Shown piece after piece: positions 15,395 to 33,339 of a stretch of 41,953 nucleotides of DNA; the stretch's first letter is position 1, and the number at the start of each line of letters is the position of its first letter. Location: sequence record SRR31156797_2984; one strand, written 5' to 3'. The notes under the pieces are model-generated. The model did not search any database. It saw nothing but the letters and a program-made list of their open reading frames with translations, and was not told the DNA's origin. The translations under genes and the position numbers were made by a program.

Positions 15395-16453
15395 TTACTC
15401 TTCTAAAATCAAAAAAACGTCGTTTATTAATCTTCGTATCTCAGGCAATAATTCAATCATCTGTTCAGCTGTAATGCCGATATTTTCCCATGCAGTGCGG
15501 TCAATAAATCCGATTACCGGAGAAATCCCAAGTCCATAACCAAGAGCCTGAGCAATAAAATCAGCCACGTGAATGACCATGGCATCGGGGTCAGTTTTTA
15601 TTTTACGCGGGTCATGGTGCCCCCATGCTGCAGCAATCAGCTGCCGGGGGAATTTCCACTTCATGAGAAGATACCCGCCAAGATCTGCATGATTAAAACC
15701 GAGCACCTCACGCTCTGCCCTATAAAGATTATACCCATCGCTACGAGCCAACTCAAAAAGCTCAATCGCTAAACTATAATCGCTTTCGAATATTACATGC
15801 AGCCCGACATCATGCATCAATCCACCAGCAAAAAAACGCTCCGGGTCACCAAGTCCTGCAGTCACAGCCATCTCCTGCGCCACAACCCCGCAGGCAATGG
15901 AATGTTTCCAAAATTTTTCCAGATCAAGGACCGCTTCATCAGTACGTCTGAATAAGCTCAAAGACGCAGTTCCAAGGGCAAGTACCCCGGCCTTCTCAAA
16001 ACCAAGCAATTCAACGGCCTTAGACGGTGTTTCAATTTTTGCCTCAAGCTTATAGAGCCCGCTGTTCGCCAGTCGCAGCACAGCAGCCGCTAATTTCGGT
16101 TCCCTACTGATTATCTCCGCAAGATCACTGATGGTGCTTTCAGGATTATCGAGCACTTCCTGCAACTGACCCTGCACTTGAGGCAATGAAGGCAAGACAA
16201 GAGACCCGGCAAGAAAAGCTTCTGGTCCTTTTGGCTTCTCACCGCTCCAAGGCTCTATATCAGAAGAAAATGTCCGGGGTAAAAAAGAATCAGGGTCAGC
16301 AAGCATTTGTTTGTAGACTCGTTTGAACGCTTCCTTCTTAAGCAACCTGACCAGATTGGAATTCCCGGCTTGCGCAAAAAGATTATGCACATAACGAGCC
16401 GCCGCTTCCTTGATATCCGGCCTTATTTTATATGGCTTCCCAGTTTTAACCAC
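15395..16453 (-). CDS. HDOD domain signalling protein (copy 2)
   Basis: LPSLPQV, EPKLAAAVLRLANS, FWKHSIACG, GGLMHDVG and WKFP..HHDP. GTG start. Confidence 0.9.
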   Translation of the reverse strand: MVKTGKPYKIRPDIKEAAARYVHNLFAQAGNSNLVRLLKKEAFKRVYKQMLADPDSFLPRTFSSDIEPWSGEKPKGPEAFLAGSLVLPSLPQVQGQLQEVLDNPESTISDLAEIISREPKLAAAVLRLANSGLYKLEAKIETPSKAVELLGFEKAGVLALGTASLSLFRRTDEAVLDLEKFWKHSIACGVVAQEMAVTAGLGDPERFFAGGLMHDVGLHVIFESDYSLAIELFELARSDGYNLYRAEREVLGFNHADLGGYLLMKWKFPRQLIAAAWGHHDPRKIKTDPDAMVIHVADFIAQALGYGLGISPVIGFIDRTAWENIGITAEQMIELLPEIRRLINDVFLILEE

Positions 16454-16476: not shown

Positions 16477-18516
16477 TTAAGCTGGATTTAGTATTTCTAA
16501 AATTTCTTCAATCAACTTCTGCACTTCAGGAATCATATCAACAAACATTTCCCCGCTGAGTCCGAAGCTTTCGTAAATCTTTTGATCAAGCACACCAAGT
16601 ACAGGAGATAAGCCCAGATGATACCCCAGCGCTCTGGAAATAAAGTCGGCCACGTGGATTATTCCGGCATCAGGATCTTTCTTAGCCTTGGCCGGATTAT
16701 GATGAGCCGCAGCGGCAACCACCAAAGATTTAGGAAAATTCCAATCTTTGAGAATAACCCCACCTAAAGCGGCATGGCTGAAGCCAAGCAACTCCATCTC
16801 GGCATCATACAGGCTGTTTCCATTAATACGGGCTAACTTAGACAGCTCAAGACCAAGACTTTTATCACTTTCGAAAATCACATAAAGCCCAATATCATGA
16901 AGCATTCCTGCAACAAAAAAACGCTCACAATCCTGAAATCCGGCCAGCTTTGCTATTTCCTGCGCAATTACTCCACAGGCTATGGCATGTTTCCAGAACT
17001 TCTCAACCTGCAAAACCTGTGCTCCCTCACTCCTTTTGAAAAGACTAAGCGAAACAGTTCCAAGAGCAAGAGAGCTGGCCTGTTTAAAACCCAATAAAGC
17101 CACCGCTCTGGAAGTAGTATCAACCTCAGTACGAAAACTGAACATGGCACTATTAGCGAGCCTCAGAATAGCTGCCACCAGCTTGGGGTCCTTGTTGATA
17201 ATAGTAGCAAGATCATCTGCGGAACTGTCTGGATCTTTAACAACCTTCTGAATCTCCAACAAAACCTGAGGTAAAGAAGGAAGAACCAATTTTGATTTCA
17301 AAAAATCTTTTGGACTTTCAGGCTTAGGCCCCTCCCATGGGCCGACATCAGCCGGACGGGGTTGAGGCATAAACTCATCCGGCTCTACAATCATCTTCTT
17401 ATAAACATTCTTGAATGCTTCCTTTTTTAGAAGACGGATAAAATCAGAATCATCAGCCTGACTGAAAAGATGTCTTACATATTTAACTGCCGCATCTTTA
17501 ACCTGCGGATTAAGAGTTGTCGTCTGCTCAACTTCCTGCATATCTATCCTTTTAGAAACTTGGGACTTAGATCTTATGGCCCAATCAACAGTACGCGCCA
17601 GGCCATTCTCAAAAGAAACTTCGGCTTTAAAACCTTCGGCTGAGAGCTTACTTACATCCGCACAGGAATGTTTGATATCCCCGGCCCGCTCCGGTTTAAA
17701 ATCAATATCTTCCGGTGCAGAAGTCAACCCTGCAATAATCGTTGCAAGCTCGCGTACAGACCGGCCAATTCCGGTTCCTACATTGTAGATACCGGTCAAC
17801 GGACCGCGACCATGCTCATCAAGTCCGGCGGCAATAAAATATGAAGTAACCACATCGGAAACATAAAGAAAATCCCTTGTCTGCTCCCCGTCCCCGAAGA
17901 TGACCATATTTTTTCCGGACAATCCGAAATCCACAAAACGGGAAATGACTCCACTATATTGGCTGGTGGGGTCCTGACGCGGACCGAAGATATTAAAAAA
18001 ACGCAAGGAACAACCGTAACCGGACTTTGCTATGTACTCCGAAGACTTATATTTAGCCACTCCGTAAGGACTGAGTTGCTCGGCCTGTGCTGCGTATTCT
18101 TCCTTAACCGGAAGCCGGTCTTCATTGCCGTATTCTGCTGCGGACCCTGCAAAGACAAAACTGGAAATCCCAAGCTCCTTTGCAACATCAAGCATATCCC
18201 GGTTAGCTTCAAAATTGACCTGCATGGTCAGTTCTGGATGCTCCACAGAATATGGAACACTGACTACAGCCGCTAACTGGAAGATCACATCCAAATCAGG
18301 GTGAAAATGTTTAAGGTCCACTAGTAAATTTTCTTCAACTATGGACCTTTCGTAAAATGTGAACCCGGCATGATCAATGAAGCCTTCCATGTTATGGGCA
18401 TATCCACTAGCAATATTATCCACTCCCACAACAGAATGCCCAGCATCCAACAAAATCTGCGTCAGGTGGCTGCCTATAAACCCCGCACATCCGGTAACAA
18501 GACAGGTCTTCGTCAT
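16477..18516 (-). CDS. pelX: PelX-like UDP-(N-acetyl)glucosamine/glucose 4-epimerase fused in frame to an HDOD domain protein
   Basis: GCAGFIG, AGSAAEYG, YGVAK and FFNIFGPRQDPTSQYSGVIS in the first ~325 aa, with HDOD motifs afterwards. ATG at 18516 has RBS GGAGGGG (ORF opens at 18531). An internal RBS+ATG lies at 17541. Confidence 0.8.
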   Translation of the reverse strand: MTKTCLVTGCAGFIGSHLTQILLDAGHSVVGVDNIASGYAHNMEGFIDHAGFTFYERSIVEENLLVDLKHFHPDLDVIFQLAAVVSVPYSVEHPELTMQVNFEANRDMLDVAKELGISSFVFAGSAAEYGNEDRLPVKEEYAAQAEQLSPYGVAKYKSSEYIAKSGYGCSLRFFNIFGPRQDPTSQYSGVISRFVDFGLSGKNMVIFGDGEQTRDFLYVSDVVTSYFIAAGLDEHGRGPLTGIYNVGTGIGRSVRELATIIAGLTSAPEDIDFKPERAGDIKHSCADVSKLSAEGFKAEVSFENGLARTVDWAIRSKSQVSKRIDMQEVEQTTTLNPQVKDAAVKYVRHLFSQADDSDFIRLLKKEAFKNVYKKMIVEPDEFMPQPRPADVGPWEGPKPESPKDFLKSKLVLPSLPQVLLEIQKVVKDPDSSADDLATIINKDPKLVAAILRLANSAMFSFRTEVDTTSRAVALLGFKQASSLALGTVSLSLFKRSEGAQVLQVEKFWKHAIACGVIAQEIAKLAGFQDCERFFVAGMLHDIGLYVIFESDKSLGLELSKLARINGNSLYDAEMELLGFSHAALGGVILKDWNFPKSLVVAAAAHHNPAKAKKDPDAGIIHVADFISRALGYHLGLSPVLGVLDQKIYESFGLSGEMFVDMIPEVQKLIEEILEILNPA

Positions 18517-18535
18517 CTCCCCTCCCGGCATTACA

Positions 18536-19906
18536 TCAGAACAACGGCTGACTTGAAAAAGTTATATACTCCAGATCACTAACGCTTTTTGAGACAAGGT
18601 AATAGGAAAACATCAAGGCAATGAAACATGAATAACAATAGCCATAACCATAAAAGGTAAACCCGAGCTGCATACTCAACCAGGTCAGCCCCACGTTACT
18701 CAGCAGAAAGACTAGGGTAACTGCCAACACTTCCTTACGCAGATCAAAATAAAACAGAATGATCACAGCCACAGAAAGCATAACCTGTAACAGGGAACCT
18801 ACCAAGGCAATCTGCAAAAGAGGCTGCTGCAAAGGAGAAAGACCGACCAGATCAACAAATGCGGGAGCCAGAAAAATGCAAAGCATTGTCAGTGTACCCT
18901 GCACAATCAAAATCTCACGCAAGCTTTCCTTGAGCATTTTGATCATGCCTTTCTTCTCCTGCAAAATACTGGAAAGGTCTTCCTTAGATATTATTTTCGC
19001 AAAATAGTCATGATAATGCTCGTAAAACTTGGTTTCAATCTTAACCAGAAAGATGGCGAGAGTAGGTACAATGGTCAGATAAGCGAAAAAAATTGGCCCC
19101 TCATACATGTCATGGGTGCGCAGGTAAGGCACCACCATTCTGGAATCCGGTGCGAACCAGAACATGATTTTGTCCACCCAGATGGCAAGGTTGAAAAACA
19201 TGCCGATCAGAGCCAGTTCCCAATATTTGATAAAGTATGAAAACATAGCCGAATCCCAAACCCTGCCCGGAGGGAATTCGGCAAGCAAACGGGCCAGCAG
19301 CCAGAAAAAAATCACCGCCTGACCAAAGGTGTAGCCGAGCAGGTAGCCCTCAAGCCCTGCAAACGGATAAAGCAGAAAAGCACTACCCACGCTACACATG
19401 GTCCCCACTGCGAAAGCCTGCACAATGGAACGGAAATCCTTTACTGCTGAGAGAAAAATCATAGTCAGCCAGATCATAGCCACAAGAAGAAAAAGTATCA
19501 CCGCAATGATCTTGTAAGTTAAAGCCAGCTCAAAGAACCAGATTCCGCCCACGCCGATAATTGCCCCGGCTGCAAGCACAATGACCGCACTGGTAAAAAA
19601 AGCGGTAAGGGTAACCTTTTCATCTCCCAAGTAAAAACGGTCGGCAAGGTAACGAGTCACCACCAACTGAATATAGCCCACGTAAATGAGGGTAAAGGCG
19701 TAGACATAAACAATGGTGGTCCGGAAAATATCCTGATCCATCCGGGAAAAGCCAGAATAGGAGTATAGTCCCAGCACAGCAAGACAGAGAACGCTCATCA
19801 GCCAAGGTCCGGATGAAACCATAGCCGCGTACAAATAGGCGGACACATCAGAAAGAAAGCTGTCCCCGCGCAGCATTTTTCTCAGTTCAAATCCTATTCC
19901 AGCCAT
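18536..19906 (-). CDS. pelG: Pel exopolysaccharide inner-membrane transporter PelG
   Basis: Diagnostic N-terminus MAGIGFELRKM..SSGPW, WVDK..FW, ET.FY..Y and about 12 TM segments. Confidence 0.95.
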   Translation of the reverse strand: MAGIGFELRKMLRGDSFLSDVSAYLYAAMVSSGPWLMSVLCLAVLGLYSYSGFSRMDQDIFRTTIVYVYAFTLIYVGYIQLVVTRYLADRFYLGDEKVTLTAFFTSAVIVLAAGAIIGVGGIWFFELALTYKIIAVILFLLVAMIWLTMIFLSAVKDFRSIVQAFAVGTMCSVGSAFLLYPFAGLEGYLLGYTFGQAVIFFWLLARLLAEFPPGRVWDSAMFSYFIKYWELALIGMFFNLAIWVDKIMFWFAPDSRMVVPYLRTHDMYEGPIFFAYLTIVPTLAIFLVKIETKFYEHYHDYFAKIISKEDLSSILQEKKGMIKMLKESLREILIVQGTLTMLCIFLAPAFVDLVGLSPLQQPLLQIALVGSLLQVMLSVAVIILFYFDLRKEVLAVTLVFLLSNVGLTWLSMQLGFTFYGYGYCYSCFIALMFSYYLVSKSVSDLEYITFSSQPLF

Positions 19907-19909
19907 ACT

Positions 19910-21415
19910 CTACTCCAGATCATCCATTGCCATGTAATCTTTATAAATATTTAAATAAGTCTCATTAAGATCCGACTCTTTATAAAAAGTCTTCACCCGT
20001 TCAATCCCAGCTTTTGACATCTTACTGCGCAGAATCGGACTAGTCAGAATTTTCAGAATAGCCTCTCCGGTGCTGACCGGGTCCGCAACCTTGGTCACAA
20101 TCCCGGACGGCCCAAGGGCCTGATCCGCCACAGTACGTCCCTCCAAAAGCTCCCGGCAGGAACCAACATCCGAAGCAACCGCCGGAATTCCTGCACAGTT
20201 TGCTTCCATGATAACCAATGGCTGAGCCTCACTGATACTGGTCAGCACGATAACATCAAGCTTGGGCAGATAATCCGTAACCCGGACCTTACCCGTAAAC
20301 TCCACCACATCCTCAAGATGCAACAGCCGTACAAGATTGACACATTCTTCGTAATATTCCTTGTCCTCCTCAGTGGGACCCATGATATAAACCTTAAGCG
20401 TTTCAAGCTTAATGGCCACAATCTTGATGGCACGCAGAAAGGTCTTCACATCCTTGATAGGCACCACGCGGCCCACAAAACCTACAGCAAATTCAGTCTG
20501 CCCCATATAGTCATGGTCTGCAGGCTTAAGTCCAAGGAAATTATCAAGGCTGATGCCGTTAGGAATAATCCTAATCTTGTCCGGGTCGGCACCTTCCTGA
20601 ATCTCAAGCTGACGGTTCCCCTCGTAAAGAGTATAGATTGCGGAAGAATAATCGTAGCACAACCGGGCCAACTGCTCGAACATCCTGATCCAGAAAGTCT
20701 GAAACGCACCGAGCTTACTTTCAATACGCATCCGCTCATCTTCCTTGCGGTAAACCCACTCGGCCTGAGAAATTTCAATTTTGCGTTCTTTAACATAGAT
20801 GCCGTGCTCGGTTAGCAGCAGCGGACGCCCGGTCATAACCCGGGCCACAACCCCAAGAAGCCCAGCATATCCAGTAGAAATAGTATGATAAACCCGTGCC
20901 TTCGGCAGATCGAGGGGAAGCATTTTGAAAATAGGCAGATGGGTAAACCGGTAAGTCCAAAAATAATCAATGAATGACTCTTCATTTCCATCCGGCTTAT
21001 AGCGTTCCACGAGCACATCCCATGCCTTCTTTCCATGGAACAATTCGGAAAGAGGATATTTATCATGACGAAAAAGCTCAACCATGTCCTTCATCATACT
21101 GATATCATTGCGATCAAGACGGTAATGAAATTTCCTGAGCTTCTCTATATTGGCAGTAGAAATCTTCTTGAACGGATTCTGTGAAATTTCAACCGGGTCA
21201 TGTAAGTAGACAATCTTGGGATCAACAAAATTATCCGGTACATCGTAACGGTACTCAGCTTTTTCTTTAGAAGAAGCGAGAATACAAACAGCGGTAAAGG
21301 TCAACTCCGGCATACCCTTGATAAGGTTATGAATCCATGTAGAAACACCCCCAGCCACAAAAGGATAGGTACCCTCAAGAAGCAAACAGACATCATACTG
21401 TTTATCCGAACTCAT
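19910..21415 (-). CDS. pelF: GT4 glycosyltransferase PelF
   Basis: LLLEGTYPFVAGGVSTW, STGYAG, LLTEHGIY..ER, GRVVPIKDVKTF and SISEAQPLVIME. Start placed at ATG 21415 (RBS GAGGT); ORF opens at 21427. Confidence 0.95.
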   Translation of the reverse strand: MSSDKQYDVCLLLEGTYPFVAGGVSTWIHNLIKGMPELTFTAVCILASSKEKAEYRYDVPDNFVDPKIVYLHDPVEISQNPFKKISTANIEKLRKFHYRLDRNDISMMKDMVELFRHDKYPLSELFHGKKAWDVLVERYKPDGNEESFIDYFWTYRFTHLPIFKMLPLDLPKARVYHTISTGYAGLLGVVARVMTGRPLLLTEHGIYVKERKIEISQAEWVYRKEDERMRIESKLGAFQTFWIRMFEQLARLCYDYSSAIYTLYEGNRQLEIQEGADPDKIRIIPNGISLDNFLGLKPADHDYMGQTEFAVGFVGRVVPIKDVKTFLRAIKIVAIKLETLKVYIMGPTEEDKEYYEECVNLVRLLHLEDVVEFTGKVRVTDYLPKLDVIVLTSISEAQPLVIMEANCAGIPAVASDVGSCRELLEGRTVADQALGPSGIVTKVADPVSTGEAILKILTSPILRSKMSKAGIERVKTFYKESDLNETYLNIYKDYMAMDDLE

Positions 21416-22481
21416 GACCCACCTCACTGAAATCAGCTTCTGTTGCTTCTTCTCCGGACAATGCCTTTTCCTTCCAGAAATTATAAATCAAAGCCTTAAA
21501 TGGATCGGGAGACTCCAGTTCAGGACGTACCCGCAACTGTTCAACTTCCTGAAACAATGCAACATAATTACCCACTTCAAAAAAAGTCCTACAAATACCA
21601 AGACGGGATTCCATTTCAAGTTCAGGAGATTTCATAGTCTCGCGGTAAATATGCAACGCTTCACTAAAACTTTTGCTCTCAACATATGCTTCAGCAAGAC
21701 GCATCAGGTAATCCTTATTTTCCTGATCCCTTTCAACGGCCTTACGCCAGTGCCCACAGGAAAAGCCCATGGAACGTTCCTGCATATTCACTTCCGGCAA
21801 GCCACTACGGGCATAATTACGATAGACGGAAGCAAGCTCAGCATGTGACTGTGCGCTATCGTATTTGTCAGCGCGGAAACGGGCCTTTTCCACTGCCTCT
21901 GCATAATCCTCTTCAAGCCTTGTCAAAGCAGTATGGGCATAAAAGCGGACCTCGGCATTCTCATCGGAAAGACTCTTACGCAACAACTTGACTGCTTCGG
22001 CAGACCCGATGCGACGCAACAAATTAACCGCTCCCCTTTTCATCTCCATGTCATCCCCGGTCAAAATATCCGCAATGGGATGGACATCAACTTCATCGTA
22101 TAAAAATTCGGTAATATCCGTGGGCAGGTCAACATCGATCCCTCCCCCCTCGTAAGCCTTTTCCTTATACTCCTCAGCCAGCCCGAAACTTTTCATAAAT
22201 ACACGGGACATAAGCAGGGTTATCGAAATTCCTACCAATCCGATCAAAGGCATGAATATAGTGAACAAAGCCGCGATACGAGGATAATAAAACCCCATGC
22301 CAGGCAAGGCGCGTGGTTTGGAAGCGGTAAAAAGCACAAAGGACAAACCCGAAAAAATGTGAACTCCAATTGCAGCGTAGACGTACCAAGAGACGACCTC
22401 CCTGTTCAGGTAGAGCCAGACAGCCCCGCCTTCTAACAGATAGGAAGCAGCAAAAGCCCCCAGCAGGCGCATCCGCGCCAT
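21402..22481 (-). CDS. pelE: PelE-like membrane protein with HEAT/TPR repeats
   Basis: N-terminal TM helices (..FMPLIG..), the HEAT-like LRKSLSDENAEVRFYAHTAL typical of PelE, and TPRs. Lies between pelD and pelF. Confidence 0.8.
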   Translation of the reverse strand: MARMRLLGAFAASYLLEGGAVWLYLNREVVSWYVYAAIGVHIFSGLSFVLFTASKPRALPGMGFYYPRIAALFTIFMPLIGLVGISITLLMSRVFMKSFGLAEEYKEKAYEGGGIDVDLPTDITEFLYDEVDVHPIADILTGDDMEMKRGAVNLLRRIGSAEAVKLLRKSLSDENAEVRFYAHTALTRLEEDYAEAVEKARFRADKYDSAQSHAELASVYRNYARSGLPEVNMQERSMGFSCGHWRKAVERDQENKDYLMRLAEAYVESKSFSEALHIYRETMKSPELEMESRLGICRTFFEVGNYVALFQEVEQLRVRPELESPDPFKALIYNFWKEKALSGEEATEADFSEVGHEFG

Positions 22482-22491
22482 TCTAATTACC

Positions 22492-23925
22492 CTACTCCGC
22501 AAAAAGTACACTGACCATGTCCTCTTTCACATTGTTGACCAGTTCCTCAGGGTCTTCCATTCCCAGACTATATCCGGCTACTCCGGCCCGAAGCTCCACA
22601 AGATTCTGATCTGTTTCGAAAGCCATCACACTAAGCGCCTTAAAAGAACTAAGCAGGTTGTTAACCACTACACGCGCTCCTGCAGCAGGAGTGGTCGGGA
22701 GGATCATATAAAAGGCCCCCGGCTCATCACTCATGAACAGAATGTCGATTTCACGAATCTGGTTTTTAAGGATCATACTGAAAGCCATGAGAACTTCATC
22801 ACGGCCTTCGTCAGAAGCATTGGAAAGCCCCGGAAATTCAAGCATGATCAACGACAGATCCAACTCATAACGCCGCGCTCTGACAAATTCTTCCCGCAAT
22901 CTGCGCAGGAAATAGTCAAAGGTGTAGGCATCAGTTATTTCATCAGCGATCAGCTTGTCTTTGGTCTCCGCAAAAACAGTAGCATTTTCAACACTACTAC
23001 CGCACCAGTCAGCGACCAGCCCGGCCACCCGCACTGAATCACTGGTAAACTTAAGAAAAGGCATCTTCTCAACATTCAAAACCCCGACCACATGCTGGTG
23101 GTTATCAGCCATAATAGGAGCGGAAATGACAACACCGCTGGGCATACTCTCGGTGCTGGCAATATCCCTGATAGACACAGCTCTCTTTTGAGCTGCGGCA
23201 ATACTCATCAAACTTTCGCCCCAAGGAATTACTTCCGGCAAATAACTCTTGCCATGCCGCAAAGCAGTATCAAGCCTGAATTCAGTTCCATCCAACAGAT
23301 AGATTGAACATTCCTCTACATCCATAAACTCGCGCAGAATTTCCAGCACTGCCGGGTAGATGCTGTCGATACTCAAAGTACGCAAGCCCTGCGCAGCTTC
23401 ATAAAGGGTACCCAGAGTACTTTCCTGCGAAAGGATCTTGCTGTCTAACTCCTGCTTGGCCTCACTGAGTATGTCATATTTAGTTTTGACCTTATCAAAA
23501 GCATCATGAAAGGCATCCCTTTCTTCGCAGACACCATTATACTCCTTGATATGTAGTTGGCGCATCTCGCCAAGCATAACACCGACCAGAAAAAAAAGTA
23601 TGGGCTTACCCCACATTGATAGGGTCCTGAAATCCATCAACTCAATATCAGGGATGGTCAAACTTTTAAAAACAACAAAAAATAAACCCGCCATAATTCC
23701 GGAAAAAAGACCTCCGGCAAAACCGTAACGAGCCGAAGTCAGCAAGACCACAATCCAATAAGGATGAGGAGAAACAGAAATGAATCCCGGGTCCTGCCGA
23801 AAAAAAATCAAGTTGGCCGCAGTTATGGCAACCAGTCCGAGCAGGACTTCATAATATTTTGAAAGCTTGTATTTTTTGGCAGCTGCTTTGACTTTAAACA
23901 TATTCACCGGCCTAATTATTTTCAA
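22492..23925 (-). CDS. pelD: PelD-like c-di-GMP receptor (TM, GAF, degenerate GGDEF)
   Basis: N-terminal TM region (PHPYW..RYG), coiled coil, GAF (VLNVEKMPFL), and a GGDEF fold with intact I-site RxxD (REID, 22744-22755) and degenerate active site. Start uncertain (TTG 23925 or ATG 23901). Confidence 0.88.
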   Translation of the reverse strand: MKIIRPVNMFKVKAAAKKYKLSKYYEVLLGLVAITAANLIFFRQDPGFISVSPHPYWIVVLLTSARYGFAGGLFSGIMAGLFFVVFKSLTIPDIELMDFRTLSMWGKPILFFLVGVMLGEMRQLHIKEYNGVCEERDAFHDAFDKVKTKYDILSEAKQELDSKILSQESTLGTLYEAAQGLRTLSIDSIYPAVLEILREFMDVEECSIYLLDGTEFRLDTALRHGKSYLPEVIPWGESLMSIAAAQKRAVSIRDIASTESMPSGVVISAPIMADNHQHVVGVLNVEKMPFLKFTSDSVRVAGLVADWCGSSVENATVFAETKDKLIADEITDAYTFDYFLRRLREEFVRARRYELDLSLIMLEFPGLSNASDEGRDEVLMAFSMILKNQIREIDILFMSDEPGAFYMILPTTPAAGARVVVNNLLSSFKALSVMAFETDQNLVELRAGVAGYSLGMEDPEELVNNVKEDMVSVLFAE

Positions 23926-23930
23926 ACACG

Positions 23931-25787
23931 TTAGAAAACAAAACCGATCCCACCGCTAACGAACTGGGTTTCCCCGCCCCCGGCAAGCCCGGAATCACTG
24001 CTGTATTCATAGTTAAGGCTCAACTCAAACCTTCCCAGTTTTAAAGCCAATGACGGTCCCCCGAAATAACTGGGACTGTTCTTGAACTCATCAAGCCTTA
24101 TCCCTCCGGCTGCCTGAAAGACAATTGTATCACAAATGGACTTGCTGAAACTGGCACTGAAGGTGTGGATACTCTCATTTTCCACCACTTCGAACGGCTT
24201 GAAGGTTTCATCATCGTACTTAAAGTAAGAACGGTAGAAAGAGTAAGAAACGAAAAGATCAGGGTCAGCAAGAAGCCTGCGGGTCAAGATGACGTTGTAG
24301 AGTCCCTTGGCCCCGTAATTCCGGTCTGATTCCAGCTTATATTGCCGCAACTGACCATTAAGAAAAAGTCCCCAAGTATCATCGTAAAAACCGTCATAGG
24401 TCAGGGAAAGTTGATTGTAATGCCCTTCATAGTTGGCTGCGGAAGGTTCATCGAGCCACGGATTATTGTAATCGATCATGGCAGAGAAGGTTCCGGGATC
24501 ATGAATACGCCAATCAAAACCAAAGGCACCGGAAATTCCCGAAGCAGTTCCCTCATACGCACCTACGCCCACAATACCGGTAAAGGTGCGGGTAAAATCT
24601 CGCTTCAGCAAAACTGCTGCCTGATTGACATCCTTATCGATCTTCTCAACTCCATCCTGCTGAGGACGGTAAATACGGGTATTAGCGTAGTAAAACTCCC
24701 CTCTGGTCTGATCGGTAATCTGCATAGAAAAACGGCTGCCCAGAGCTGTGGTTATAGACTCATCTGCCTGCAGATAGACACTGGGAATGAGTTCAAGACG
24801 CGGCCTGCGTTCCATGAGCAGGTTTGAAAGAGCCTGCCGTGCTTCATAATTATCCGGCTCAGCATCGATAAGTTCCGAAAAGCTCTCGATTGCGCCCAGC
24901 CAGTCCCCCCCCTGCTGAGTACTGTAAGCCTTGGCGGAAATGGAATCAGTGTCACCAGGCCGCAACCGCAGCAGATAATTGAGGGTATCGATCTGTACGG
25001 AATAATCCCCGGCCAGCAAACGCAGACGGGCTTCCTGCCGCAAGGCACGCGGAGAATCTGGATCAAGGTAAAGCCAGCGACGCAACAGGGCCTCAGCCTT
25101 TGCGGTTTCATTATTATCGATAAGTGCGCCAATATACTCTTCACGCAACTCCAAATCATCTGGGTAGATCTTAAGCAGCTTAGCATAAAGCCTGACCCCG
25201 TCTTCCACATATCCGCGGCGGATCATGATCCGGGCAAGAATTACATTCTGCTGCCTGTGCCCTGTCGCCCTCAACACATCACGCTGTCCCAATTCGTAAA
25301 AAAGGGATTCCGGTGCACCGACTAACTTCGGCTTGCCCTGCGAAGAATTCTCCGCACCTTTTGCTCCCTGCATAGTGGTCTGCGGCGGCAATGGGGTTTT
25401 GCGGGAATCCAAAGTCCGCTCTTCCAGCATAGTCACGGGCATGGAGCGGACCATATAATCAAGTTTAATCTTCTTCTTGAAAAGACGTCCGGCAACCCGC
25501 GCCTGACTACGGGTGGGATAATCACCTATCTGAATCACCCGCCAGCCTTTGCCTTGTCCATCGTACAGATAGACCATGACCGGGGAGTAACCTTCACTTT
25601 TCAGATAGGACATGAAATTCCATGCAGCATCAGCCCCCAGAAAAGAACTGACCCTGACAGTCCATGTAACATCATTCTTTTCTTCTACAGGCACAGCGGT
25701 AGTGTCCTCCGCCCAGAGCGGAGTTCCATGCATGACCGGCATCAATACCGTCATCAAAACAAAAATTCCAAAAACTAATTTTTTCAA
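23931..25787 (-). CDS. PelB C-terminal-like outer-membrane export protein with N-terminal SPOR domain (signal, SPOR, TPR, beta-barrel)
   Basis: Signal peptide ending LWA. SPOR pattern WTVRVSSF..A..L..GY..WRVIQIGDYPTRSQA, TPRs, then alternating aromatic beta-strands ending in the BamA-type GIGFVF. Occupies the pelB position. Confidence 0.78.
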   Translation of the reverse strand: MKKLVFGIFVLMTVLMPVMHGTPLWAEDTTAVPVEEKNDVTWTVRVSSFLGADAAWNFMSYLKSEGYSPVMVYLYDGQGKGWRVIQIGDYPTRSQARVAGRLFKKKIKLDYMVRSMPVTMLEERTLDSRKTPLPPQTTMQGAKGAENSSQGKPKLVGAPESLFYELGQRDVLRATGHRQQNVILARIMIRRGYVEDGVRLYAKLLKIYPDDLELREEYIGALIDNNETAKAEALLRRWLYLDPDSPRALRQEARLRLLAGDYSVQIDTLNYLLRLRPGDTDSISAKAYSTQQGGDWLGAIESFSELIDAEPDNYEARQALSNLLMERRPRLELIPSVYLQADESITTALGSRFSMQITDQTRGEFYYANTRIYRPQQDGVEKIDKDVNQAAVLLKRDFTRTFTGIVGVGAYEGTASGISGAFGFDWRIHDPGTFSAMIDYNNPWLDEPSAANYEGHYNQLSLTYDGFYDDTWGLFLNGQLRQYKLESDRNYGAKGLYNVILTRRLLADPDLFVSYSFYRSYFKYDDETFKPFEVVENESIHTFSASFSKSICDTIVFQAAGGIRLDEFKNSPSYFGGPSLALKLGRFELSLNYEYSSDSGLAGGGETQFVSGGIGFVF

Positions 25788-25791
25788 AACA

Positions 25792-28632
25792 CTACCTGTT
25801 AATTTTATTTACATCCCTACCGGAAACATTCTTGCGTCCTTCACGGCGGAGAATACGTGCCGCCCGCTTAAATTCACGAGCAGCATCATTTTCCCGGCCC
25901 ATAAGCCGATAAATTTCACCCAACTGGTAACGCCCTTCGGCATCTTTGGGAACTAGCCTTAAATATTTCCGCAACTTGGAGACAGCTCTTTTGTACTGTT
26001 CCCGTTCACCATAAATAATTCCCAGTCCCTTGAGTGCTGTATGATTTTCTGGGTTAACCTTGAGGGCCGTCTGAAACAGGTCATAAGCATCGGTCTGAAA
26101 ATTATTAAACAAGGCTTCCGCACCCAACCGGGCTAGGAATATTTCGTCTTTATTGTACTCTTTTTTCAACCTTTTATAAACATCGGAACCCTCACTTCCG
26201 CGTCCGGCCATCTGCAATGCCGAAGCCAGTAAAAAGCCTTCAAAGCGGGGCAATTTTTCCAAACGGCCATAAGGTTCCAGAATCCGCAAAGCGGCTTCGG
26301 GTGCTCGCTCATCAAGATAGGCCCGGGCCAGTTCGATACGTTCGGCCTCAGGCAATTTTCCTGCAGCCTGTAATTCCTTGAAAACCCTGATCTGATCTGT
26401 AGACTTTCCTGCAAAACCATAGACCCTTGCGAGATCTAATTTCAGCTCATAATCACGAGGCTTAATAGCGATAGCCCGTTCATAGTAATCAGCAGCTTTA
26501 AGGTACTCCCCGGCATCAGACCAAGCCTTCCCCGCTCGCTTGGCTAGGTCGAAGTTACCCGGAGATTCATTAGATATTTCAGCGTAAAGCTTTGCCGCTA
26601 CAGCAGGACGTGCGGTCCATTCAGCCAGTCTGGCAAGACTTTCCCTGATTTCTTTACGCTTGTAATCACGCGAATACAACTCATCATAAATACGGTAAGC
26701 CTCTTCACTAAGTCCAGCCTGATCAGCGAAATCCGCCCACTTATGCAAGACATTGAGATTCTTAGCACTCTGCCCTGCAAAATGGGAAATTAGCTGTTCC
26801 GCTTTTTTACTATCACCAGCAGCAGCCCATACCGCAGCAGCCAGCAAAGCAACCTGCTCATCATCCGGACGCAAGCTGATGGAGGTCTCAGCGGCATCGC
26901 GAAAAATAGCCTTGTCCCCAGTGTAAGATGCAATCTGAATAAGGTTCATGACGTATTCACGATTGCCCCCGGTCATAATCGCAGCCTTTTTGTAATAGGG
27001 ATAACCGTCTATTGGAGAATTCAGCCAAAGCATAATTTCCCCGGCCTGCGCGATTACCTTCACATCCTTAGGCGCAATCTTTTCTGCATACTTAGCGGCC
27101 TGCTTTGCCAACTTAAGATCCTGAGTCTCAGAAGCAGCCAGCAGCATGTCGAGAATATCCTGCTGCTCCTGCTCCCTTTTCAACAATTCACGATAAATAA
27201 GGTAAGCCTTATAGGGCTTGTTAACATTACGATACGCTGACCCGGCAGTACGCATGATATTGATGTCATTGGGGAAGACTTTAAGAGCCAATTCCACTGT
27301 TTCGGCCAAAAGTTTATTATCAGCTGTGGTTGCGGCCGCATCAATAAGCGTCTGGTAATCTTCCAGAGTAGCACCGGGACTATCCACGACCTTGCGCAAA
27401 ACATCGTAGGCTTCGCGCGGACGTTCAAGGGTCAGCAGCAATGTACCGCGAGTACGCAGATAATCAGGCTCGGAAAAATCAACATCCTTGGTATCTTCCA
27501 CCACCTCGGCCATAAGTACCCGATCTTCACTGAACAAGGCCGCCCGCAGCATATCATGAGCATAAACAAGCCAGTTCCCTACCCGCTCGGCCAAATCACG
27601 GAACAGAGAGACGGCCTTACGGTGATTACCGGTCTGCATATAGACATCGCCGAGCGCCTGATGATGAGCATGATTATCCGGCTCGATCTGGACTAATTTT
27701 TCCAAAACCAATTGTGCAAGATCATGCCTGTCAGCACTGCGGGCCATCCATGCTGTTTCGGTCAGCAGATGCACATTTTCAGGACTTATCTTGAGGAGTC
27801 TTTGCGCCACATCCAAAGCCCGGTCATAATCACCGGCCCACCCCAGAACCTTGACCAACTGCACCCTGCTCTCAACATCAAGCCCGGCCTGCTCATCCAT
27901 GCGGGCAGCATATTCATAGCCATCCTCCATGCGATCCACGGCAACAAAATACTCAAGCACATAAACTACATACCGCAGAAAATCGACTTTTTCCCCAGAC
28001 TCAGCCCTGAACTCGGTTTCTGCCTTAAACTGCTCTCCGACAATGAAAATCCGCTGAAGCAAAAAATTGAGGTAGGGGTCATCCAAATTCTTAGCATGTT
28101 CCGCGCCGAGCAACTCAATTTCATCACTGAGCACACGCATGAAATCGCCGCGGAACGGTCTTTTGCCCTGCAACTCGTTGAGTTTTATTATGGCATCCAC
28201 TTCCTCCGAAAACAGATTGAAGTATCGGTAATACATTACCATCTGCTCCAAAGGCTTCATCTTTCCAGGCTCAATCTTTGAAATCTTTTCCCATGTATGC
28301 AAAGCTTCCCGAGGCATGACATTCCACTCAAAAACCTGCACAAGCTTCCGCAATTCGGGAACACGGTACGGTTTCTGCTTTAAAATCTCCTCAAGACTGG
28401 AAATAGCCTTATCCGGCATCCCACGCTTAAGATAAACATCCGCACCAATGGCCAAGAGTCTCAGGTCATGAGGATCTTTTTCAAGAAGCTCACTGATAAG
28501 GTCCGCAGCTTTGGAAATCTCACCGCTCCGCAGGTACAACGGGACCATATCCCTCGGAAAGGGATAGATAAGTACGGTCGTCCCGATTATGATGAGTACG
28601 AAAAGCAGTACCCGCCAGAGCTTTATGTTCAA
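25792..28632 (-). CDS. Large TPR scaffold, PelB N-terminal-like, with N-terminal membrane anchor
   Basis: Hydrophobic N-terminal helix followed by ~900 aa of TPR-like repeats, no beta-barrel. TTG start overlaps the upstream TGA. Confidence 0.8.
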   Translation of the reverse strand: MNIKLWRVLLFVLIIIGTTVLIYPFPRDMVPLYLRSGEISKAADLISELLEKDPHDLRLLAIGADVYLKRGMPDKAISSLEEILKQKPYRVPELRKLVQVFEWNVMPREALHTWEKISKIEPGKMKPLEQMVMYYRYFNLFSEEVDAIIKLNELQGKRPFRGDFMRVLSDEIELLGAEHAKNLDDPYLNFLLQRIFIVGEQFKAETEFRAESGEKVDFLRYVVYVLEYFVAVDRMEDGYEYAARMDEQAGLDVESRVQLVKVLGWAGDYDRALDVAQRLLKISPENVHLLTETAWMARSADRHDLAQLVLEKLVQIEPDNHAHHQALGDVYMQTGNHRKAVSLFRDLAERVGNWLVYAHDMLRAALFSEDRVLMAEVVEDTKDVDFSEPDYLRTRGTLLLTLERPREAYDVLRKVVDSPGATLEDYQTLIDAAATTADNKLLAETVELALKVFPNDINIMRTAGSAYRNVNKPYKAYLIYRELLKREQEQQDILDMLLAASETQDLKLAKQAAKYAEKIAPKDVKVIAQAGEIMLWLNSPIDGYPYYKKAAIMTGGNREYVMNLIQIASYTGDKAIFRDAAETSISLRPDDEQVALLAAAVWAAAGDSKKAEQLISHFAGQSAKNLNVLHKWADFADQAGLSEEAYRIYDELYSRDYKRKEIRESLARLAEWTARPAVAAKLYAEISNESPGNFDLAKRAGKAWSDAGEYLKAADYYERAIAIKPRDYELKLDLARVYGFAGKSTDQIRVFKELQAAGKLPEAERIELARAYLDERAPEAALRILEPYGRLEKLPRFEGFLLASALQMAGRGSEGSDVYKRLKKEYNKDEIFLARLGAEALFNNFQTDAYDLFQTALKVNPENHTALKGLGIIYGEREQYKRAVSKLRKYLRLVPKDAEGRYQLGEIYRLMGRENDAAREFKRAARILRREGRKNVSGRDVNKINR

Positions 28633-30713
28633 ATCAGATTAATCTCCATGGGGCCGGAAGCAACATCTTCGACCAATAAAACTCCCTCCCCATTAGTGAT
28701 AAGTTCCTGCGGCGCTCCATCCTTACGGATAAACATGTATTTCCTGTTTGGAATCAAACCTGCCAGCTCAAATTTCCCCTTACTGAAACATTCAAAATCA
28801 AAACGTACCCCCTTGCCCATACGCTCAAAATTACGCACCCAACCGGAACCGTTCTTGAGATAAGGTAAGTTCTCGTTAACCTTTTTCTCCACACTCAAAA
28901 CCAGCTCCGCACGCTCAGTTCCGGGATTAAGATGCACGAAAATTCCTTCCGGCTGAATATCATAGCCGAGCACATTCTTGCATTTGGCAAGATCAGGAAC
29001 CTTATCCATGCCGTCCAGTCGTACGGAAAGGCAGTCGCTATAATTACTGAAAACAAATCGGTCCGGGGAAATCTCCTCCACTTTCGCAACAAGGCTGGCG
29101 TTCACCATTTTGATGTAAGCTGAAGCATAGACCCGTGCCGTATCCTGGCTGAGTGCCCATTCGTAAACATCTTCAAGAGCCTTGAGAGATGCGAATTTCT
29201 CACCGCTGTAAAAATGGTAGTAGATATCAATAGGCATGATCCGACGCGGAGAGCCAGTCCGCTTCATGGTATCCACAATATTGCGGAACCCGAAGTACGG
29301 CCCGGACCAAAGATTGGTCAGAATATTCTCATTGGCCTGCCCGGTATAAATCTGGTTGTATTTGCCTAAAGCACGATAAAGAGGTGAAACTCCGAAATAT
29401 GAATTGCGGCGGGCATCAAAGACAGTATCCCCGCCATTCATGTTTAGGATCCCAGCCTTATCAGCAATAGCAACCTGATCTTCTGTGGGTTCACACATAC
29501 CAGACCAAAACAACACCCGGCAGGGTTTTTCCAGCGGAGCAAGATTCTCGGAAATATAATCACAAGACCCAACAATTTCGTAATGGGCATCAAATTTATA
29601 ACCTGCAATTTCGTACTGCCCGATGACAAAATCCTCGGCATATTCCTTGGACTCCCGGGTCTTAGCGTTCCATGCAAAAGGATGGGTGTAGGAATGGGAT
29701 GATGTCTCCACATTCTCCATCTCAAAAAGAGTTCTCGCCAGCTCCACATTCTCCACGCTACCCTTCACATCAGGATTGATTTCCCCGGCAATAACTGAAG
29801 CTGAATTAGGAAAGTCATAACGCTCAAAAATGCGCTCCATGACAATTTCCCCGCAAACCTTATGTAGGTCCACCTCGGTATAACCAACGAAGCCGTCACC
29901 ATCGATATGAGCAAAAGCAACCCGCTTGCCATTCAAGGTGGTTGGAGTTAGCGCCGGCATGCCTTCCGCTCCCAGAGCAATCCGTAAAAATTCAAAGGGA
30001 TTCAAATACCACTGTTTATTAAAATCAACCGGGTCCTGCCAGCGCATATACCCGTCAAGAGCAAATCCGCCGTACGCCCCCAAGCCCACAGCAGTTGCTG
30101 TTGTACTGGATTTTCCCTTCAACCCCACGCTTACCCATGAAATGACATCCTTCCCGGTGGGGATAATCTGAATATACTTATCCGGGAATAACGGAAGCTT
30201 GCGCTCAAAATTCATATTCTGCGGATCAACATACTCATATTTCAAGCGGTAATCGTCATTGGTAGCATTGCCTTGGTATGAAAATCCGAGATTGGAAAAT
30301 ACCTTCTTAATCAACAGCGGCTCAGCCGGAGCTCTGTCAAAACCACTGAAAGCACCCAAGGTTCCGGCAATTATGACCTTCTTGCCCTGCTTCTGCTGCC
30401 TGATCAGCCAATTGAGAAACTCATTGGGATTGTTCATCAGGTCTTCGGAAAAGGAAGTGAAGACAGCCCGGTATTCCTCCATCGCTTTGTCAGAAGGCAA
30501 AGGCCGCTGCGCAACGTCGCGCACCTCGTACAAGAAGCCGAGATAATTAAGGGGAGCGGCAAAGCCTTCGATAAAATTGTTATCCACAGCTGATCGATCT
30601 TCAGCGCCATTATAGAGTACCAGCACCTTACGCTTAACCGGCTCGGCATAAGCGCAGGACAAAGCAAGAAGAACAATCAGAAATGCGACAACAAGCCTAT
30701 TCACCAGACGCAT
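28629..30713 (-). CDS. pelA: PelA C-terminal half: polysaccharide de-N-acetylase
   Basis: Own signal peptide (..SCAYA). PelA motifs TTLNGKRVAFAHIDGDG, SHSYTHPF, FWSG, NMNGG, NENI and IYYHFYSG, with metal ligands DxD and HxxxH intact. Confidence 0.9.
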   Translation of the reverse strand: MRLVNRLVVAFLIVLLALSCAYAEPVKRKVLVLYNGAEDRSAVDNNFIEGFAAPLNYLGFLYEVRDVAQRPLPSDKAMEEYRAVFTSFSEDLMNNPNEFLNWLIRQQKQGKKVIIAGTLGAFSGFDRAPAEPLLIKKVFSNLGFSYQGNATNDDYRLKYEYVDPQNMNFERKLPLFPDKYIQIIPTGKDVISWVSVGLKGKSSTTATAVGLGAYGGFALDGYMRWQDPVDFNKQWYLNPFEFLRIALGAEGMPALTPTTLNGKRVAFAHIDGDGFVGYTEVDLHKVCGEIVMERIFERYDFPNSASVIAGEINPDVKGSVENVELARTLFEMENVETSSHSYTHPFAWNAKTRESKEYAEDFVIGQYEIAGYKFDAHYEIVGSCDYISENLAPLEKPCRVLFWSGMCEPTEDQVAIADKAGILNMNGGDTVFDARRNSYFGVSPLYRALGKYNQIYTGQANENILTNLWSGPYFGFRNIVDTMKRTGSPRRIMPIDIYYHFYSGEKFASLKALEDVYEWALSQDTARVYASAYIKMVNASLVAKVEEISPDRFVFSNYSDCLSVRLDGMDKVPDLAKCKNVLGYDIQPEGIFVHLNPGTERAELVLSVEKKVNENLPYLKNGSGWVRNFERMGKGVRFDFECFSKGKFELAGLIPNRKYMFIRKDGAPQELITNGEGVLLVEDVASGPMEINLI

Positions 30714-31611
30714 GAATAAACACCTCGTTTAATGCCGGAGTACTGACATATGGGATAAAGCCCAGCTTGCGGGAAAAATCGTAAGCTTTCTTAATTTCCT
30801 GTGTATCCCCGGCAGGTACATAGTCAAGAGTCAGGACCACCAGCTTGGGGTTGGCCTTCAAGGCAGTTTCCGCCTTGGCGATGAGAAAATTACGATCCGC
30901 TTCCGATACGTCAGTACGGGTGGAAGTGGCCAGATCCATGGAACTGCTCAGCCCCTCAATCAACAGGTAGTTGAGATACGGGGCTGTACGCCGGACAATT
31001 TCAAATCCCCGGTTCTGGCAAAGCAACAGCTTGGGGAATTTTTTTCTGATAACCCGGAGCAAATCAACACAAGCCCGCTCGGTACCCTTGTAGCTCTCCG
31101 GGTCCCTCCGCTGCATATCGATGGGAGAATCCAACGTATCAAAAAAAAGCCCGTCATATCCGGCCGAAAGAGCGTCGGGGATAATACGGGTAAAAAGCAA
31201 TTCGCTCCACTCCGGGCGGCGCACATCCACCACCCATGAATCCCAATTCTCATTATGACGCACGAGCAGGCCAAGACGCATAGCCTCCTCATAATAAGGA
31301 CCGTCCCCGGCAACCTCACCGAGACTTACGTAAGCCAGCACCTTTGCTCCTTTTGCGCGCAAAAGAGCCGGGTCCTGCCCTCCGGGGTCCGAGACTAACA
31401 GATCGAAACCGGAAAGTTTGTCCGTCCGGTCCTCACTTCCGTAATAGCAGGCCCACGATTCAACAGCATTACTCCCGCCAAACACGAGAGTCCTGCCGAA
31501 CAAGGAAAAGGTAACCACAAGCAGTGCGACTACTGCGCAGAAACGGAAGACATTGCTGCCACCATTTCCGCAAGGGTTTCCTGCGCTACGCTGTTCAGGG
31601 ATTCCGTACAT
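30697..31611 (-). CDS. pelA: PelA N-terminal half: endo-alpha-1,4-(N-acetyl)galactosaminidase (GH166/GH114-like)
   Basis: WACYYG, LAYVSLGEV, NENWDS..D, GYDGLFFDTLDS, NRGFE, IEGL and LDY..GFIPYV. Start is ambiguous (ATG 31653, ATG 31611 or GTG 31518) because the 5' end overlaps pelC. Confidence 0.88.
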   Translation of the reverse strand: MYGIPEQRSAGNPCGNGGSNVFRFCAVVALLVVTFSLFGRTLVFGGSNAVESWACYYGSEDRTDKLSGFDLLVSDPGGQDPALLRAKGAKVLAYVSLGEVAGDGPYYEEAMRLGLLVRHNENWDSWVVDVRRPEWSELLFTRIIPDALSAGYDGLFFDTLDSPIDMQRRDPESYKGTERACVDLLRVIRKKFPKLLLCQNRGFEIVRRTAPYLNYLLIEGLSSSMDLATSTRTDVSEADRNFLIAKAETALKANPKLVVLTLDYVPAGDTQEIKKAYDFSRKLGFIPYVSTPALNEVFIHASGE

Positions 31612-32090
31612 CCGAAAAAGCACCCCCCGCTCTTGGAAGAAGATGAAGCCCAAAGCACATTGCCGGAAGAAACATCAATCATACGCAGATTAATGCCCAC
31701 AGTAGGACTCTGGTTAACACCGCGCTTGTACTGGTACTCGGTCACAGAACCGTAGATGACGGTATCCACACCGAGTTTGCTGCCCAATTTCTGGGCCACA
31801 ACGTCTTCCATAACGAATTCGAGATCATCCTCATCACCCTTGATGCGCTTAAACATCTCAGTTGATTCCATGAGGTCGAACTTGGTGGAAGCATACAGTT
31901 CGGTTGTCAGCAGGTCACCGACCATACGTCCGGCATTAGGAGTGTTAGTCAGGTTCACCAGCGGCAACACAGCAGCATGGCGGGCTTCACTGGCAACACC
32001 GTTAGGCTGGACGTAATCTTTCATGTAAGTACCGGAACATCCGGCAAGAAAGAAAATAAAAATCAAAGTAGTGAAAAAGCTCTTTTTCAC
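31530..32090 (-). CDS. pelC: Pel export lipoprotein PelC
   Basis: Lipobox LAGC, VLPLVNLTNTPNAG and YGSVTEYQYK..PTVGINLRMID..SG.VLW. GTG start with RBS AAGGAGG. First gene of the operon. Confidence 0.9.
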   Translation of the reverse strand: MKKSFFTTLIFIFFLAGCSGTYMKDYVQPNGVASEARHAAVLPLVNLTNTPNAGRMVGDLLTTELYASTKFDLMESTEMFKRIKGDEDDLEFVMEDVVAQKLGSKLGVDTVIYGSVTEYQYKRGVNQSPTVGINLRMIDVSSGNVLWASSSSKSGGCFFGCTESLNSVAQETLAEMVAAMSSVSAQ

Positions 32091-32379
32091 AGCACCCTCC
32101 TTATTTTAGAAAAATTTTAATCTTTAATTCAACCTAAACATACAACTTAAAACACAAAACAATCCATATCTAAAGATAAAAATCATAACTTTACATTAAA
32201 TTATTCATTTATTTAAGATACTATAATCCTAATCCATGGCTATGCAAAGTATTTTTTGTTTGTAACCTTCAAAAATTACATTATTTTTTATACTGCAATC
32301 ACAGCCAGAACTCTTTAATTTTATCTTCTCCCATGTTATTCTTCCAAAACACAAAATATTAACCGGGAAAATTCCAATT
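32091..32379. promoter_or_regulatory. AT-rich divergent promoter region between pelC and the GH114 lipoprotein gene
   Basis: 289-bp strongly AT-rich intergenic region between divergent starts, with a TATAAT at about 32222-32227. No operator could be assigned. Confidence 0.6.
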
Positions 32380-33339
32380 ATGAGAATACATACCATTATA
32401 ATTATGACCTTTTTATCCATTATTGCCGGCTGCGTATCAACAACCAGCAACGCTCCATCAAGCAGAACTGTGGAGCAATCAAAACAGGAAATACCAATGA
32501 CCCCGCCGCACAAAGAAATCAACAGCTGGGCCTATCAACTGCAAGGCCCTAAAGTGGCAACACTGGCAGAATCCCCCTATGATCTATTGGTCATTGATTA
32601 TTCAAAAGACGGCTCAGACAAGAACAGATTTTCCGCCAAGGAAATTTCCACACTCCATAAATTCAATAAAACGGTGCTATGTTACTTTTCTATCGGCGAA
32701 GCAGAAGATTATCGTTTATACTGGCAGAAACAATGGAAGGACAGTCCGCCCCGTTTTCTCGGACCGGAGAACCCGGACTGGGCAGGTAATTACAAAGTAA
32801 AATACTGGCGCGAAGATTGGTGGAAAACAGGATTGCGCCCTTATCTGGACCGCATCCTTGAGGCAGGATTCGACGGTGTTTATCTCGACATTGTCGATGC
32901 ATACTGGTTCTGGCACGAGCAGGACATGGACGTGCGGAATACTGCGGACGATATGGTCAAGCTAATCAAAAGAATAGCTGACTACACCCGCAAAAAAGCC
33001 GGGAAAAATTTCATCATCTGCCCCCAGAACGGCATGGGTGTATTTAACGACTGTTCCCCGGAATACAAAGACGTCTACTTCAAAACTGTAGATATGATAG
33101 GTCTTGAAAGCCTGCTTTTCAATTACTATAGTGAAGGAGACAAAAACTACCGCCTGCAATTAGCAAAACAACTAGCCGAGGCAGGTAAAACCGTCCTTGA
33201 TGTTGAATACATTGAATCGTCTCAATACGCTGACTATCTGAAACAGGTTAAGGCACTTGATTTCAAGCTGATTCCCTACGGATCAACACCCGATGCGGAA
33301 TTAGATAGGGTCACGGATTTTTGGAAGTTTAGAGAGTAA
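32380..33339 (+). CDS. GH114-like (TM1410/MJ1477 family) endo-alpha-1,4-polygalactosaminidase lipoprotein
   Basis: Lipobox IAGC, WAYQLQ, DLLVIDYS.DG, CYFSIGEAEDYR.YW, ENPDW.GNY.V.YW, GFDGVYLDIVD and PQNG. Confidence 0.9.
   Translation: MRIHTIIIMTFLSIIAGCVSTTSNAPSSRTVEQSKQEIPMTPPHKEINSWAYQLQGPKVATLAESPYDLLVIDYSKDGSDKNRFSAKEISTLHKFNKTVLCYFSIGEAEDYRLYWQKQWKDSPPRFLGPENPDWAGNYKVKYWREDWWKTGLRPYLDRILEAGFDGVYLDIVDAYWFWHEQDMDVRNTADDMVKLIKRIADYTRKKAGKNFIICPQNGMGVFNDCSPEYKDVYFKTVDMIGLESLLFNYYSEGDKNYRLQLAKQLAEAGKTVLDVEYIESSQYADYLKQVKALDFKLIPYGSTPDAELDRVTDFWKFRE

Follow-up and report, generated by a model that had tools for sequence, protein, structure and literature searches.

The pel locus and its outer-membrane pore

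The window, by which we mean the whole 41,953-nucleotide stretch of DNA analysed here, contains a complete pel operon (both halves of pelA, pelC and pelDEFG). The gene for an outer-membrane pore belongs to this operon, which is the gene context expected of PelB. We call the operon Maridesulfovibrio-like because of the names of 36 close homologues of the pore protein (mostly Maridesulfovibrio or Desulfovibrio), which match it at 55-86% identity over nearly the full length. The genes lie at the following positions.

16477..18531, minus strand: C4-epimerase fused to an HDOD domain (profile matches)
18536..19906, minus strand: PelG exporter (PF16933, 481 bits)
19910..21427, minus strand: PelF glycosyltransferase (NF038011, 517 bits)
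21402..22511, minus strand: PelE-like HEAT/TPR membrane protein, named from position and architecture
22492..23925, minus strand: PelD-like protein with GAF and degenerate GGDEF domains (one RxxD motif, at residue 391)
23931..25787, minus strand: outer-membrane pore ORF, 618 residues, TTG start
25792..28632, minus strand: N-terminal PelB half, 946 residues, with a hydrophobic N-terminal helix and a long TPR array, no barrel
28629..30713, minus strand: deacetylase half of PelA, CE4-like (PelA 9cgy, E 4.5e-75)
30697..31653, minus strand: GH114 hydrolase, the other PelA half (PF03537); its true start is probably downstream of the listed TTG
31530..32090, minus strand: PelC lipoprotein (PelC 9h80_C, E 2.9e-13)
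32380..33339, plus strand: second GH114, a lipoprotein-like hydrolase, divergent; beside the operon in 8 of 10 loci

The pel gene order was conserved in all 10 loci compared, as far as their contigs extend. From the homology of PelF, PelG and PelA we infer that the product of the operon is a GalNAc/GalN polymer. The C4-epimerase, which we take to be PelX-like, is fused in frame to HDOD, with a second HDOD gene behind it (15395-16453, minus strand); the fusion may be a strain-level read-through, because the two are separate ORFs in most relatives. The split of PelA into a hydrolase and a deacetylase gene (28629-31653, minus strand) recurs in relatives, as does the divergent GH114. In the PelC alignment, which sets the register, there seems to be an Asn at the D-loop Asp of the P. 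aeruginosa protein and a Cys-Phe-Phe-Gly-Cys loop at the site of its membrane-facing Trp. A NicO/RcnA-type metal transporter, whose N-terminus includes a long periplasmic region (33329-34708, minus strand), adjoins the pel locus in several relatives. Elsewhere in the window, a PPDK_N/PEP-utiliser protein lies next to a dual-specificity phosphatase that weakly matches CxxCxxCC (7349-10871, minus strand). Promoter and terminator counts were near the level of shuffled sequence, and an Rfam scan of 31500-33500 gave no match.

From N- to C-terminus, the pore protein consists of a signal peptide, a SPOR domain, a short linker, four TPRs and a 16-strand barrel, all encoded on the minus strand.

25710..25787, minus strand: putative signal peptide, residues 1-26 (from sequence)
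25428..25676, minus strand: SPOR domain, residues 38-120 (Pfam, fold and conservation)
25308..25406, minus strand: variable low-complexity linker, residues 128-160 (composition, model and conservation)
24813..25259, minus strand: four TPRs and a stalk helix, residues 177-325 (Pfam and structure model)
23931..24809, minus strand: 16-strand PelB-like outer-membrane barrel with a C-terminal Phe (structure model and fold matches)

The N-terminus has a basic start followed by a hydrophobic core, and Ala26 is nearly invariant (at least 90% of the 37 homologues in the alignment), from which we infer a signal peptide cleaved after this residue. The linker (about residues 128-160; 5 Pro, 3 Gln and 3 Ser among 33 residues) is modelled with low confidence and is the least conserved section of the protein (0.42, against 0.75 for SPOR, 0.79 for the TPRs and 0.82 for the barrel). 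In the structure model, residues 177-325 form nine helices, which make up the four TPRs and the stalk, and residues 330-617 form 16 strands if 605-611 and 614-617 are taken as one. The initial annotation had described a cleavable signal peptide, a SPOR pattern at residues ~38-115, a Pro/Gln/Ser-rich linker, and TPRs followed by a beta-barrel ending in Phe. These elements were all recovered, the linker being real yet short, and the Pfam and structure-prediction check that it proposed gave a SPOR fold at the N-terminus and a barrel at the C-terminus.

The C-terminal half of a split PelB

The pore protein is the C-terminal, outer-membrane half of a split PelB, a point absent from the initial annotation. 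Its best whole-protein fold match was PelB of the PelBC structure 9h80 (Foldseek E 1e-14; Z 26.6, rmsd 4.9, 350 residues aligned), and the next matches, the PgaA-type 4y25 (Z 24.6) and BcsC 6tzk (Z 24.4), came about 2 Z below. PgaA and BcsC have the TPRs and the 16-strand barrel in common with this pore, but their operons differ, its own neighbours being pel genes. Besides these shared parts, a Plug-I-like short helix (residues 448-452) joins barrel strands 7 and 8 in the structure model, and a Plug-S-like Gly-rich loop joins strands 15 and 16. P. aeruginosa PelB (9h80) likewise has TPRs, a stalk, a 16-strand barrel, a strand 7/8 helix and a Gly-rich strand 15/16 loop; Plug-type gating features have been described for it, and its last TPRs dock in the PelC ring (PMC12141448). 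The P. aeruginosa operon also keeps pelC, pelA and pelDEFG together, although pelA is in halves here. The pore differs from P. aeruginosa PelB in being split over two genes, in having only four TPRs on the barrel, in its own signal peptide and SPOR, and in the strand 11/12 loop (12 residues against 31). The Pfam PelB barrel (PF24604) did not match the pore protein and matched relatives below its cut-off (best E 8.6e-6), and a direct match to a canonical PelB barrel was not significant (E 0.16).

In place of the single polypeptide with a long TPR array that defines PelB, there are two genes. In three relatives (P0102, P0108 and L021) PelB is unsplit: their sequences follow the 946-residue protein as far as its residue 930-943 and continue with the pore protein, starting at its residue 162-178. 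Because these relatives are colinear across both halves, the signal peptide, SPOR and linker fill the break in PelB. When the SPOR-TPR part was co-folded, without alignments, with the last 247 residues of the 946-residue protein, the score was 0.00, which we count neither for nor against contact between the halves. Two genomes have only a short signal peptide-TPR protein at the pore position (G700, L060:10763-11524; G641, L070:8767-9390), with no barrel match elsewhere in their assemblies and no pelC within the 20 kb fetched.

In aquatic thermophiles, fission of pelB with rearrangement is already on record (PMC7112194, Fig. 5 iii). The fission is shared with the pore described here; the accessible part of that paper does not mention a wall-binding module, and a word search of it for Desulfo- gave 0 matches. 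The pore and its relatives are a divergent split PelB family, labelled in databases, as the close homologues are, just 'SPOR domain-containing' or 'TPR protein'.

The SPOR domain and its binding face

The Pfam SPOR model (PF05036) matched residues 41-104 at 25.8 bits (cut-off 21; E 1.3e-5). Predicted alone, the domain folds as beta-alpha-beta-beta-alpha-beta (pLDDT 88), with the four-stranded sheet backed by two helices that is typical of the family, and in the full-protein model it spans residues 40-117. The top structural match was a putative exported protein (6ozd, Z 10.7), followed by CwlC (1x60; Z 9.2, rmsd 2.1, 75 aligned), RlpA (6i0n; Z 8.4, rmsd 2.9, 76 aligned), DedD (Z 7.6) and DamX (Z 6.9), the sixth match dropping to Z 5.1. 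We turned to the fold search and to a wider profile because sequence and narrow-profile searches were too weak: a PDB sequence search with the whole pore protein returned TPR matches only, and a profile built on close homologues reached CwlC at E 0.13. A word-indexed search based on the wide alignment retrieved Maridesulfovibrio proteins nearly exclusively.

The pore SPOR shares with those of FtsN, DamX, DedD, RlpA and CwlC the fold and the Trp at the start of beta-3 and, judging by alignment and net charge, probably also the Phe after beta-1 and a basic surface. It differs from them in its N-terminal position, in an Arg for the beta-1 Gln and in its fusion to an outer-membrane polysaccharide pore, whereas the others are on a division protein or hydrolase. 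Trp42, Trp82, Gln86, Gly88 and Tyr90 are invariant, Phe49 (at the post-beta-1 Phe) and Arg/Lys114 are each found in 36 of 37 homologues, and the net charge of the domain is +5. In the profile alignment, Phe49, Ser48 and Trp82 line up with the Phe, Ser and Trp of FtsN, and Val84 with its beta-3 Arg, DamX likewise having Val there. The conserved beta-1 Gln of septum-targeting SPORs (RlpA Q270, FtsN Q251, DamX Q351) is absent. Arg45 occupies its position, by profile alignments to FtsN, DamX and CwlC, in 37/37 close homologues, and among 24 Desulfovibrionia pores with SPOR, 21 have the Arg; the related pores L063, L064 and L068 retain Gln. We considered that Gln and Arg might have traded places between beta-1 and beta-3, but dropped the idea because CwlC too has Gln at the Gln86 position.

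In the RlpA-glycan structure the contacts are mostly main-chain, the key side chains being the beta-1 Gln and a basic patch; this Gln is the sole highly conserved contact side chain, and its mutation is among those that lower septal localisation of FtsN and DamX (PMC6895207). The septal selectivity of the pore SPOR is uncertain because Arg45 replaces it. This residue weighs on the proposal that the domain addresses the pore to the septum or new pole: by binding denuded septal glycan it would pre-install the pore at the division site, and Pel would then emerge from the new pole. Binding to denuded glycan is common to every SPOR domain characterised (10.1101/2022.07.01.498525), and the FtsN-like Phe, Ser and Trp, the Val shared with DamX and the three related pores that keep Gln agree with such an address, but the nearly uniform change to Arg does not. 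We regard septal addressing as possible, though rather unlikely.

The initial annotation had also suggested that the SPOR fold was repurposed to bind the exported glycan. The domain could then bind nascent Pel coming off the TPR rail and pass the polymer on to the pore. In favour are the glycan-binding sheet of SPOR, its place at the junction of the two TPR halves and the change of its binding face at the key Gln. However, exported Pel is cationic. The net charge of +5 and the invariant Arg45 would therefore fit an anionic glycan such as murein and fit Pel poorly, and they contrast with the anionic Pel route in PelB (PMC12141448). The RlpA SPOR moreover depends on lactyl carboxylates and is intolerant of N-deacetylation (PMC6895207). 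Pel binding would also leave unexplained why AMIN-like or NTF2-like modules replace SPOR in relatives, and we consider it very improbable.

Modules in the N-terminal slot and a possible wall tether

A barrel-only profile recovered 71 clusters among 1.84 billion representatives; a Pfam scan covered 58 of the 70 new clusters, and the N-termini were inspected. The slot holds SPOR in 11 clusters, an AMIN-like module in 9, a Cds6_C NTF2-like (Csd6-type) domain in 2 and no module in 35, the remainder being unsplit (2) or fragments (12). The 35 comprise 25 with a signal-like N-terminus and 10 in which it is doubtful or cut. Five of the SPOR clusters are distant ones above the Pfam cut-off, one is the pore protein's own and five are weak calls, made from a local profile or sub-threshold Pfam match (P0076, P0073, P0042) or from pattern and pairwise score only (P0089, P0051); one distant relative carries three SPOR copies. 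The AMIN-like module exceeds the Pfam cut-off (PF11741/PF24837) in 2 of the 9, P0041 and P0052. Taken as single domains, 8/8 match PF24837 with E no higher than 0.1, at a score below cut-off in the one case with a reported score; a PDB profile search reached PilQ at E 0.85, and the language-model neighbours were AMIN clusters (0.90-0.91). Metagenome loci retrieved with an AMIN-form alignment had pel genes beside the pore in 11/11 cases and the AMIN-like module in 6, and the AMIN-like forms L079 and L080 have the same pel gene order and position as the SPOR pore at 23931-25787.

PelG was present in 43 of 351 Desulfovibrionia genomes. A pore was found in 30 of the 40 Desulfovibrionia regions fetched, 19 with the Maridesulfovibrio-type SPOR, 5 with a more distant SPOR and 6 without; three further genomes have, just beyond the stretch retrieved, a short pore that leaves no space for a module. 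This brings the pores without one to 9 of 33, which also weighs on septal targeting. PelG searches in other genome sets gave 10/401 and 1/101, and a phylum-wide search with the pore profile, scoring 3 candidates per genome, gave 3/401.

A single clade of SPOR-bearing pores was rejected (AU p 1.4e-5) on 42 rows under a simpler model, with near-duplicates, long branches and basal no-module rows of the 71 left out. The SPOR label has to change 7 times across the pore tree; the trees were quick ones without bootstrap, on which gain and loss are indistinguishable and some rows without a module are truncated proteins. By pairwise score the SPORs of these pores fall into at least two subtypes, and because AMIN and NTF2 come in addition, we count at least three, probably four, separate acquisitions. 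As a narrow control, 39 canonical PelB proteins, mostly Geobacteraceae-type, were checked, and 0/39 list a SPOR, AMIN or NTF2-type domain. One relative encodes a cell-wall amidase, and there are 6-7 SPOR matches per genome; amidases are not discriminating because they also occur in genomes whose pore is without SPOR.

In G001, the genome of a relative, SPOR was also seen on two other proteins. In a second polysaccharide locus (L018:1630-3318), a SPOR-linker-membrane helix-ATPase protein, presumably tyrosine-kinase-like, lies directly upstream of a Poly_export gene, and its SPOR is of the second subtype found on Pel pores. The other (L016:2313-3986) has a Peptidase C25 (gingipain-like family) domain with a C-terminal SPOR.

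The folds in the slot are all associated with peptidoglycan. PilQ has AMIN domains that bind peptidoglycan and direct this secretin to the septum and the new pole (PMC5285504, PMC10653833), and the NTF2 domain of Pgp2 also binds it (PMC8038945). PilQ, like this pore family, is a channel of the outer membrane that can carry a peptidoglycan-binding module at its N-terminus, AMIN in PilQ and one or two AMIN-like domains in pore relatives; unlike the Pel pore, which is modelled as a monomeric barrel, it is a multimeric pilus secretin with demonstrated polar targeting. That a module resembling this septal and polar targeter occupies the same slot would favour septal addressing of the pore, but the NTF2 module of Bd1075 goes to the convex side wall and not to the septum (PMC8938487).

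With three unrelated peptidoglycan-associated folds in one slot, a wall tether is therefore favoured over Pel binding, and the conservation of SPOR, close to that of the TPRs and barrel, supports it too. We propose, at about even probability, that the SPOR domain is an accessory peptidoglycan tether on the outer-membrane half of the split PelB. An unsplit PelB would have broken into an inner-membrane-side TPR rail (the 946-residue protein) and a TPR-barrel that has a signal peptide of its own and is exported separately. The barrel would sit in the outer membrane with its last TPRs inside the PelC ring, as in P. aeruginosa, and the new N-terminus would hang under the ring on a linker of 30-45 residues, close to the wall. 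There SPOR, or an AMIN-like or NTF2-like module in relatives, would grip wall glycan chiefly by main-chain contacts and a basic patch (Arg45, Arg/Lys114), keeping the pore over a wall opening and in register with the synthase and with the rail that is no longer covalently attached. Such a tether would be helpful and non-essential, because many pores have no module; in the lineages of the 25 or more clusters that combine a signal peptide with an empty slot, it would be dispensable. The pinning of the Pel pore to the wall put forward in the initial annotation thus gains indirect backing from the conserved SPOR fold and from the AMIN-like and NTF2-like modules of relatives, and its septal targeting is at best tentative.

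Instead of gripping the wall, the SPOR domain might dock on the TPR half, the deacetylase or PelC, or it might be a nearly neutral passenger in an N-terminal slot that tolerates additions. In favour, the SPOR subtype of the pore has lost the canonical Gln, relatives vary at this position, and modules come and go freely across the tree. A neutral slot should, however, gather arbitrary domains, and all three module types are peptidoglycan-associated; the SPOR is strongly conserved within the genus, and a specific protein partner would hardly tolerate three unrelated folds. We therefore judge this explanation unlikely.

A more speculative idea goes further. Fission of PelB may have freed an N-terminal slot that was filled at least four times by unrelated wall readers (two SPOR subtypes, AMIN and Csd6-type NTF2), each a swappable postcode that fixes the site of Pel extrusion at the septum, new pole or side wall. 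If true, this would be a synthase-dependent polysaccharide machine with a built-in wall address, possibly giving a polar, holdfast-like adhesin in marine sulfate reducers, and the Gln-to-Arg SPOR would read a differently edited wall.

A literature search with most subscription journals outside its scope found no description of a PelB bearing SPOR, AMIN or NTF2. Pel operons have been reported in syntrophic sulfate reducers in a paper whose main text, as far as accessible, mentions neither PelB nor SPOR, and 12 of its 17 supplementary files contain no SPOR, AMIN or PelB match (PMC10553843). The split Pel pore with a putative wall-binding domain is a real and conserved variation on Pel export that seems to be new, the fission of pelB itself being already published. 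How synthase-dependent polysaccharide machines cross or sit relative to peptidoglycan is an open question according to a review of cellulose secretion (PMC8892547), and our analysis suggests that the pore of marine sulfate reducers is tied to the cell wall. The natural Gln-to-Arg variant can be used to probe what SPOR domains recognise, and the pore family as a whole is a natural experiment, with a SPOR, AMIN-like or NTF2-like module or nothing on the same pore, in culturable biofilm-forming sulfate reducers.
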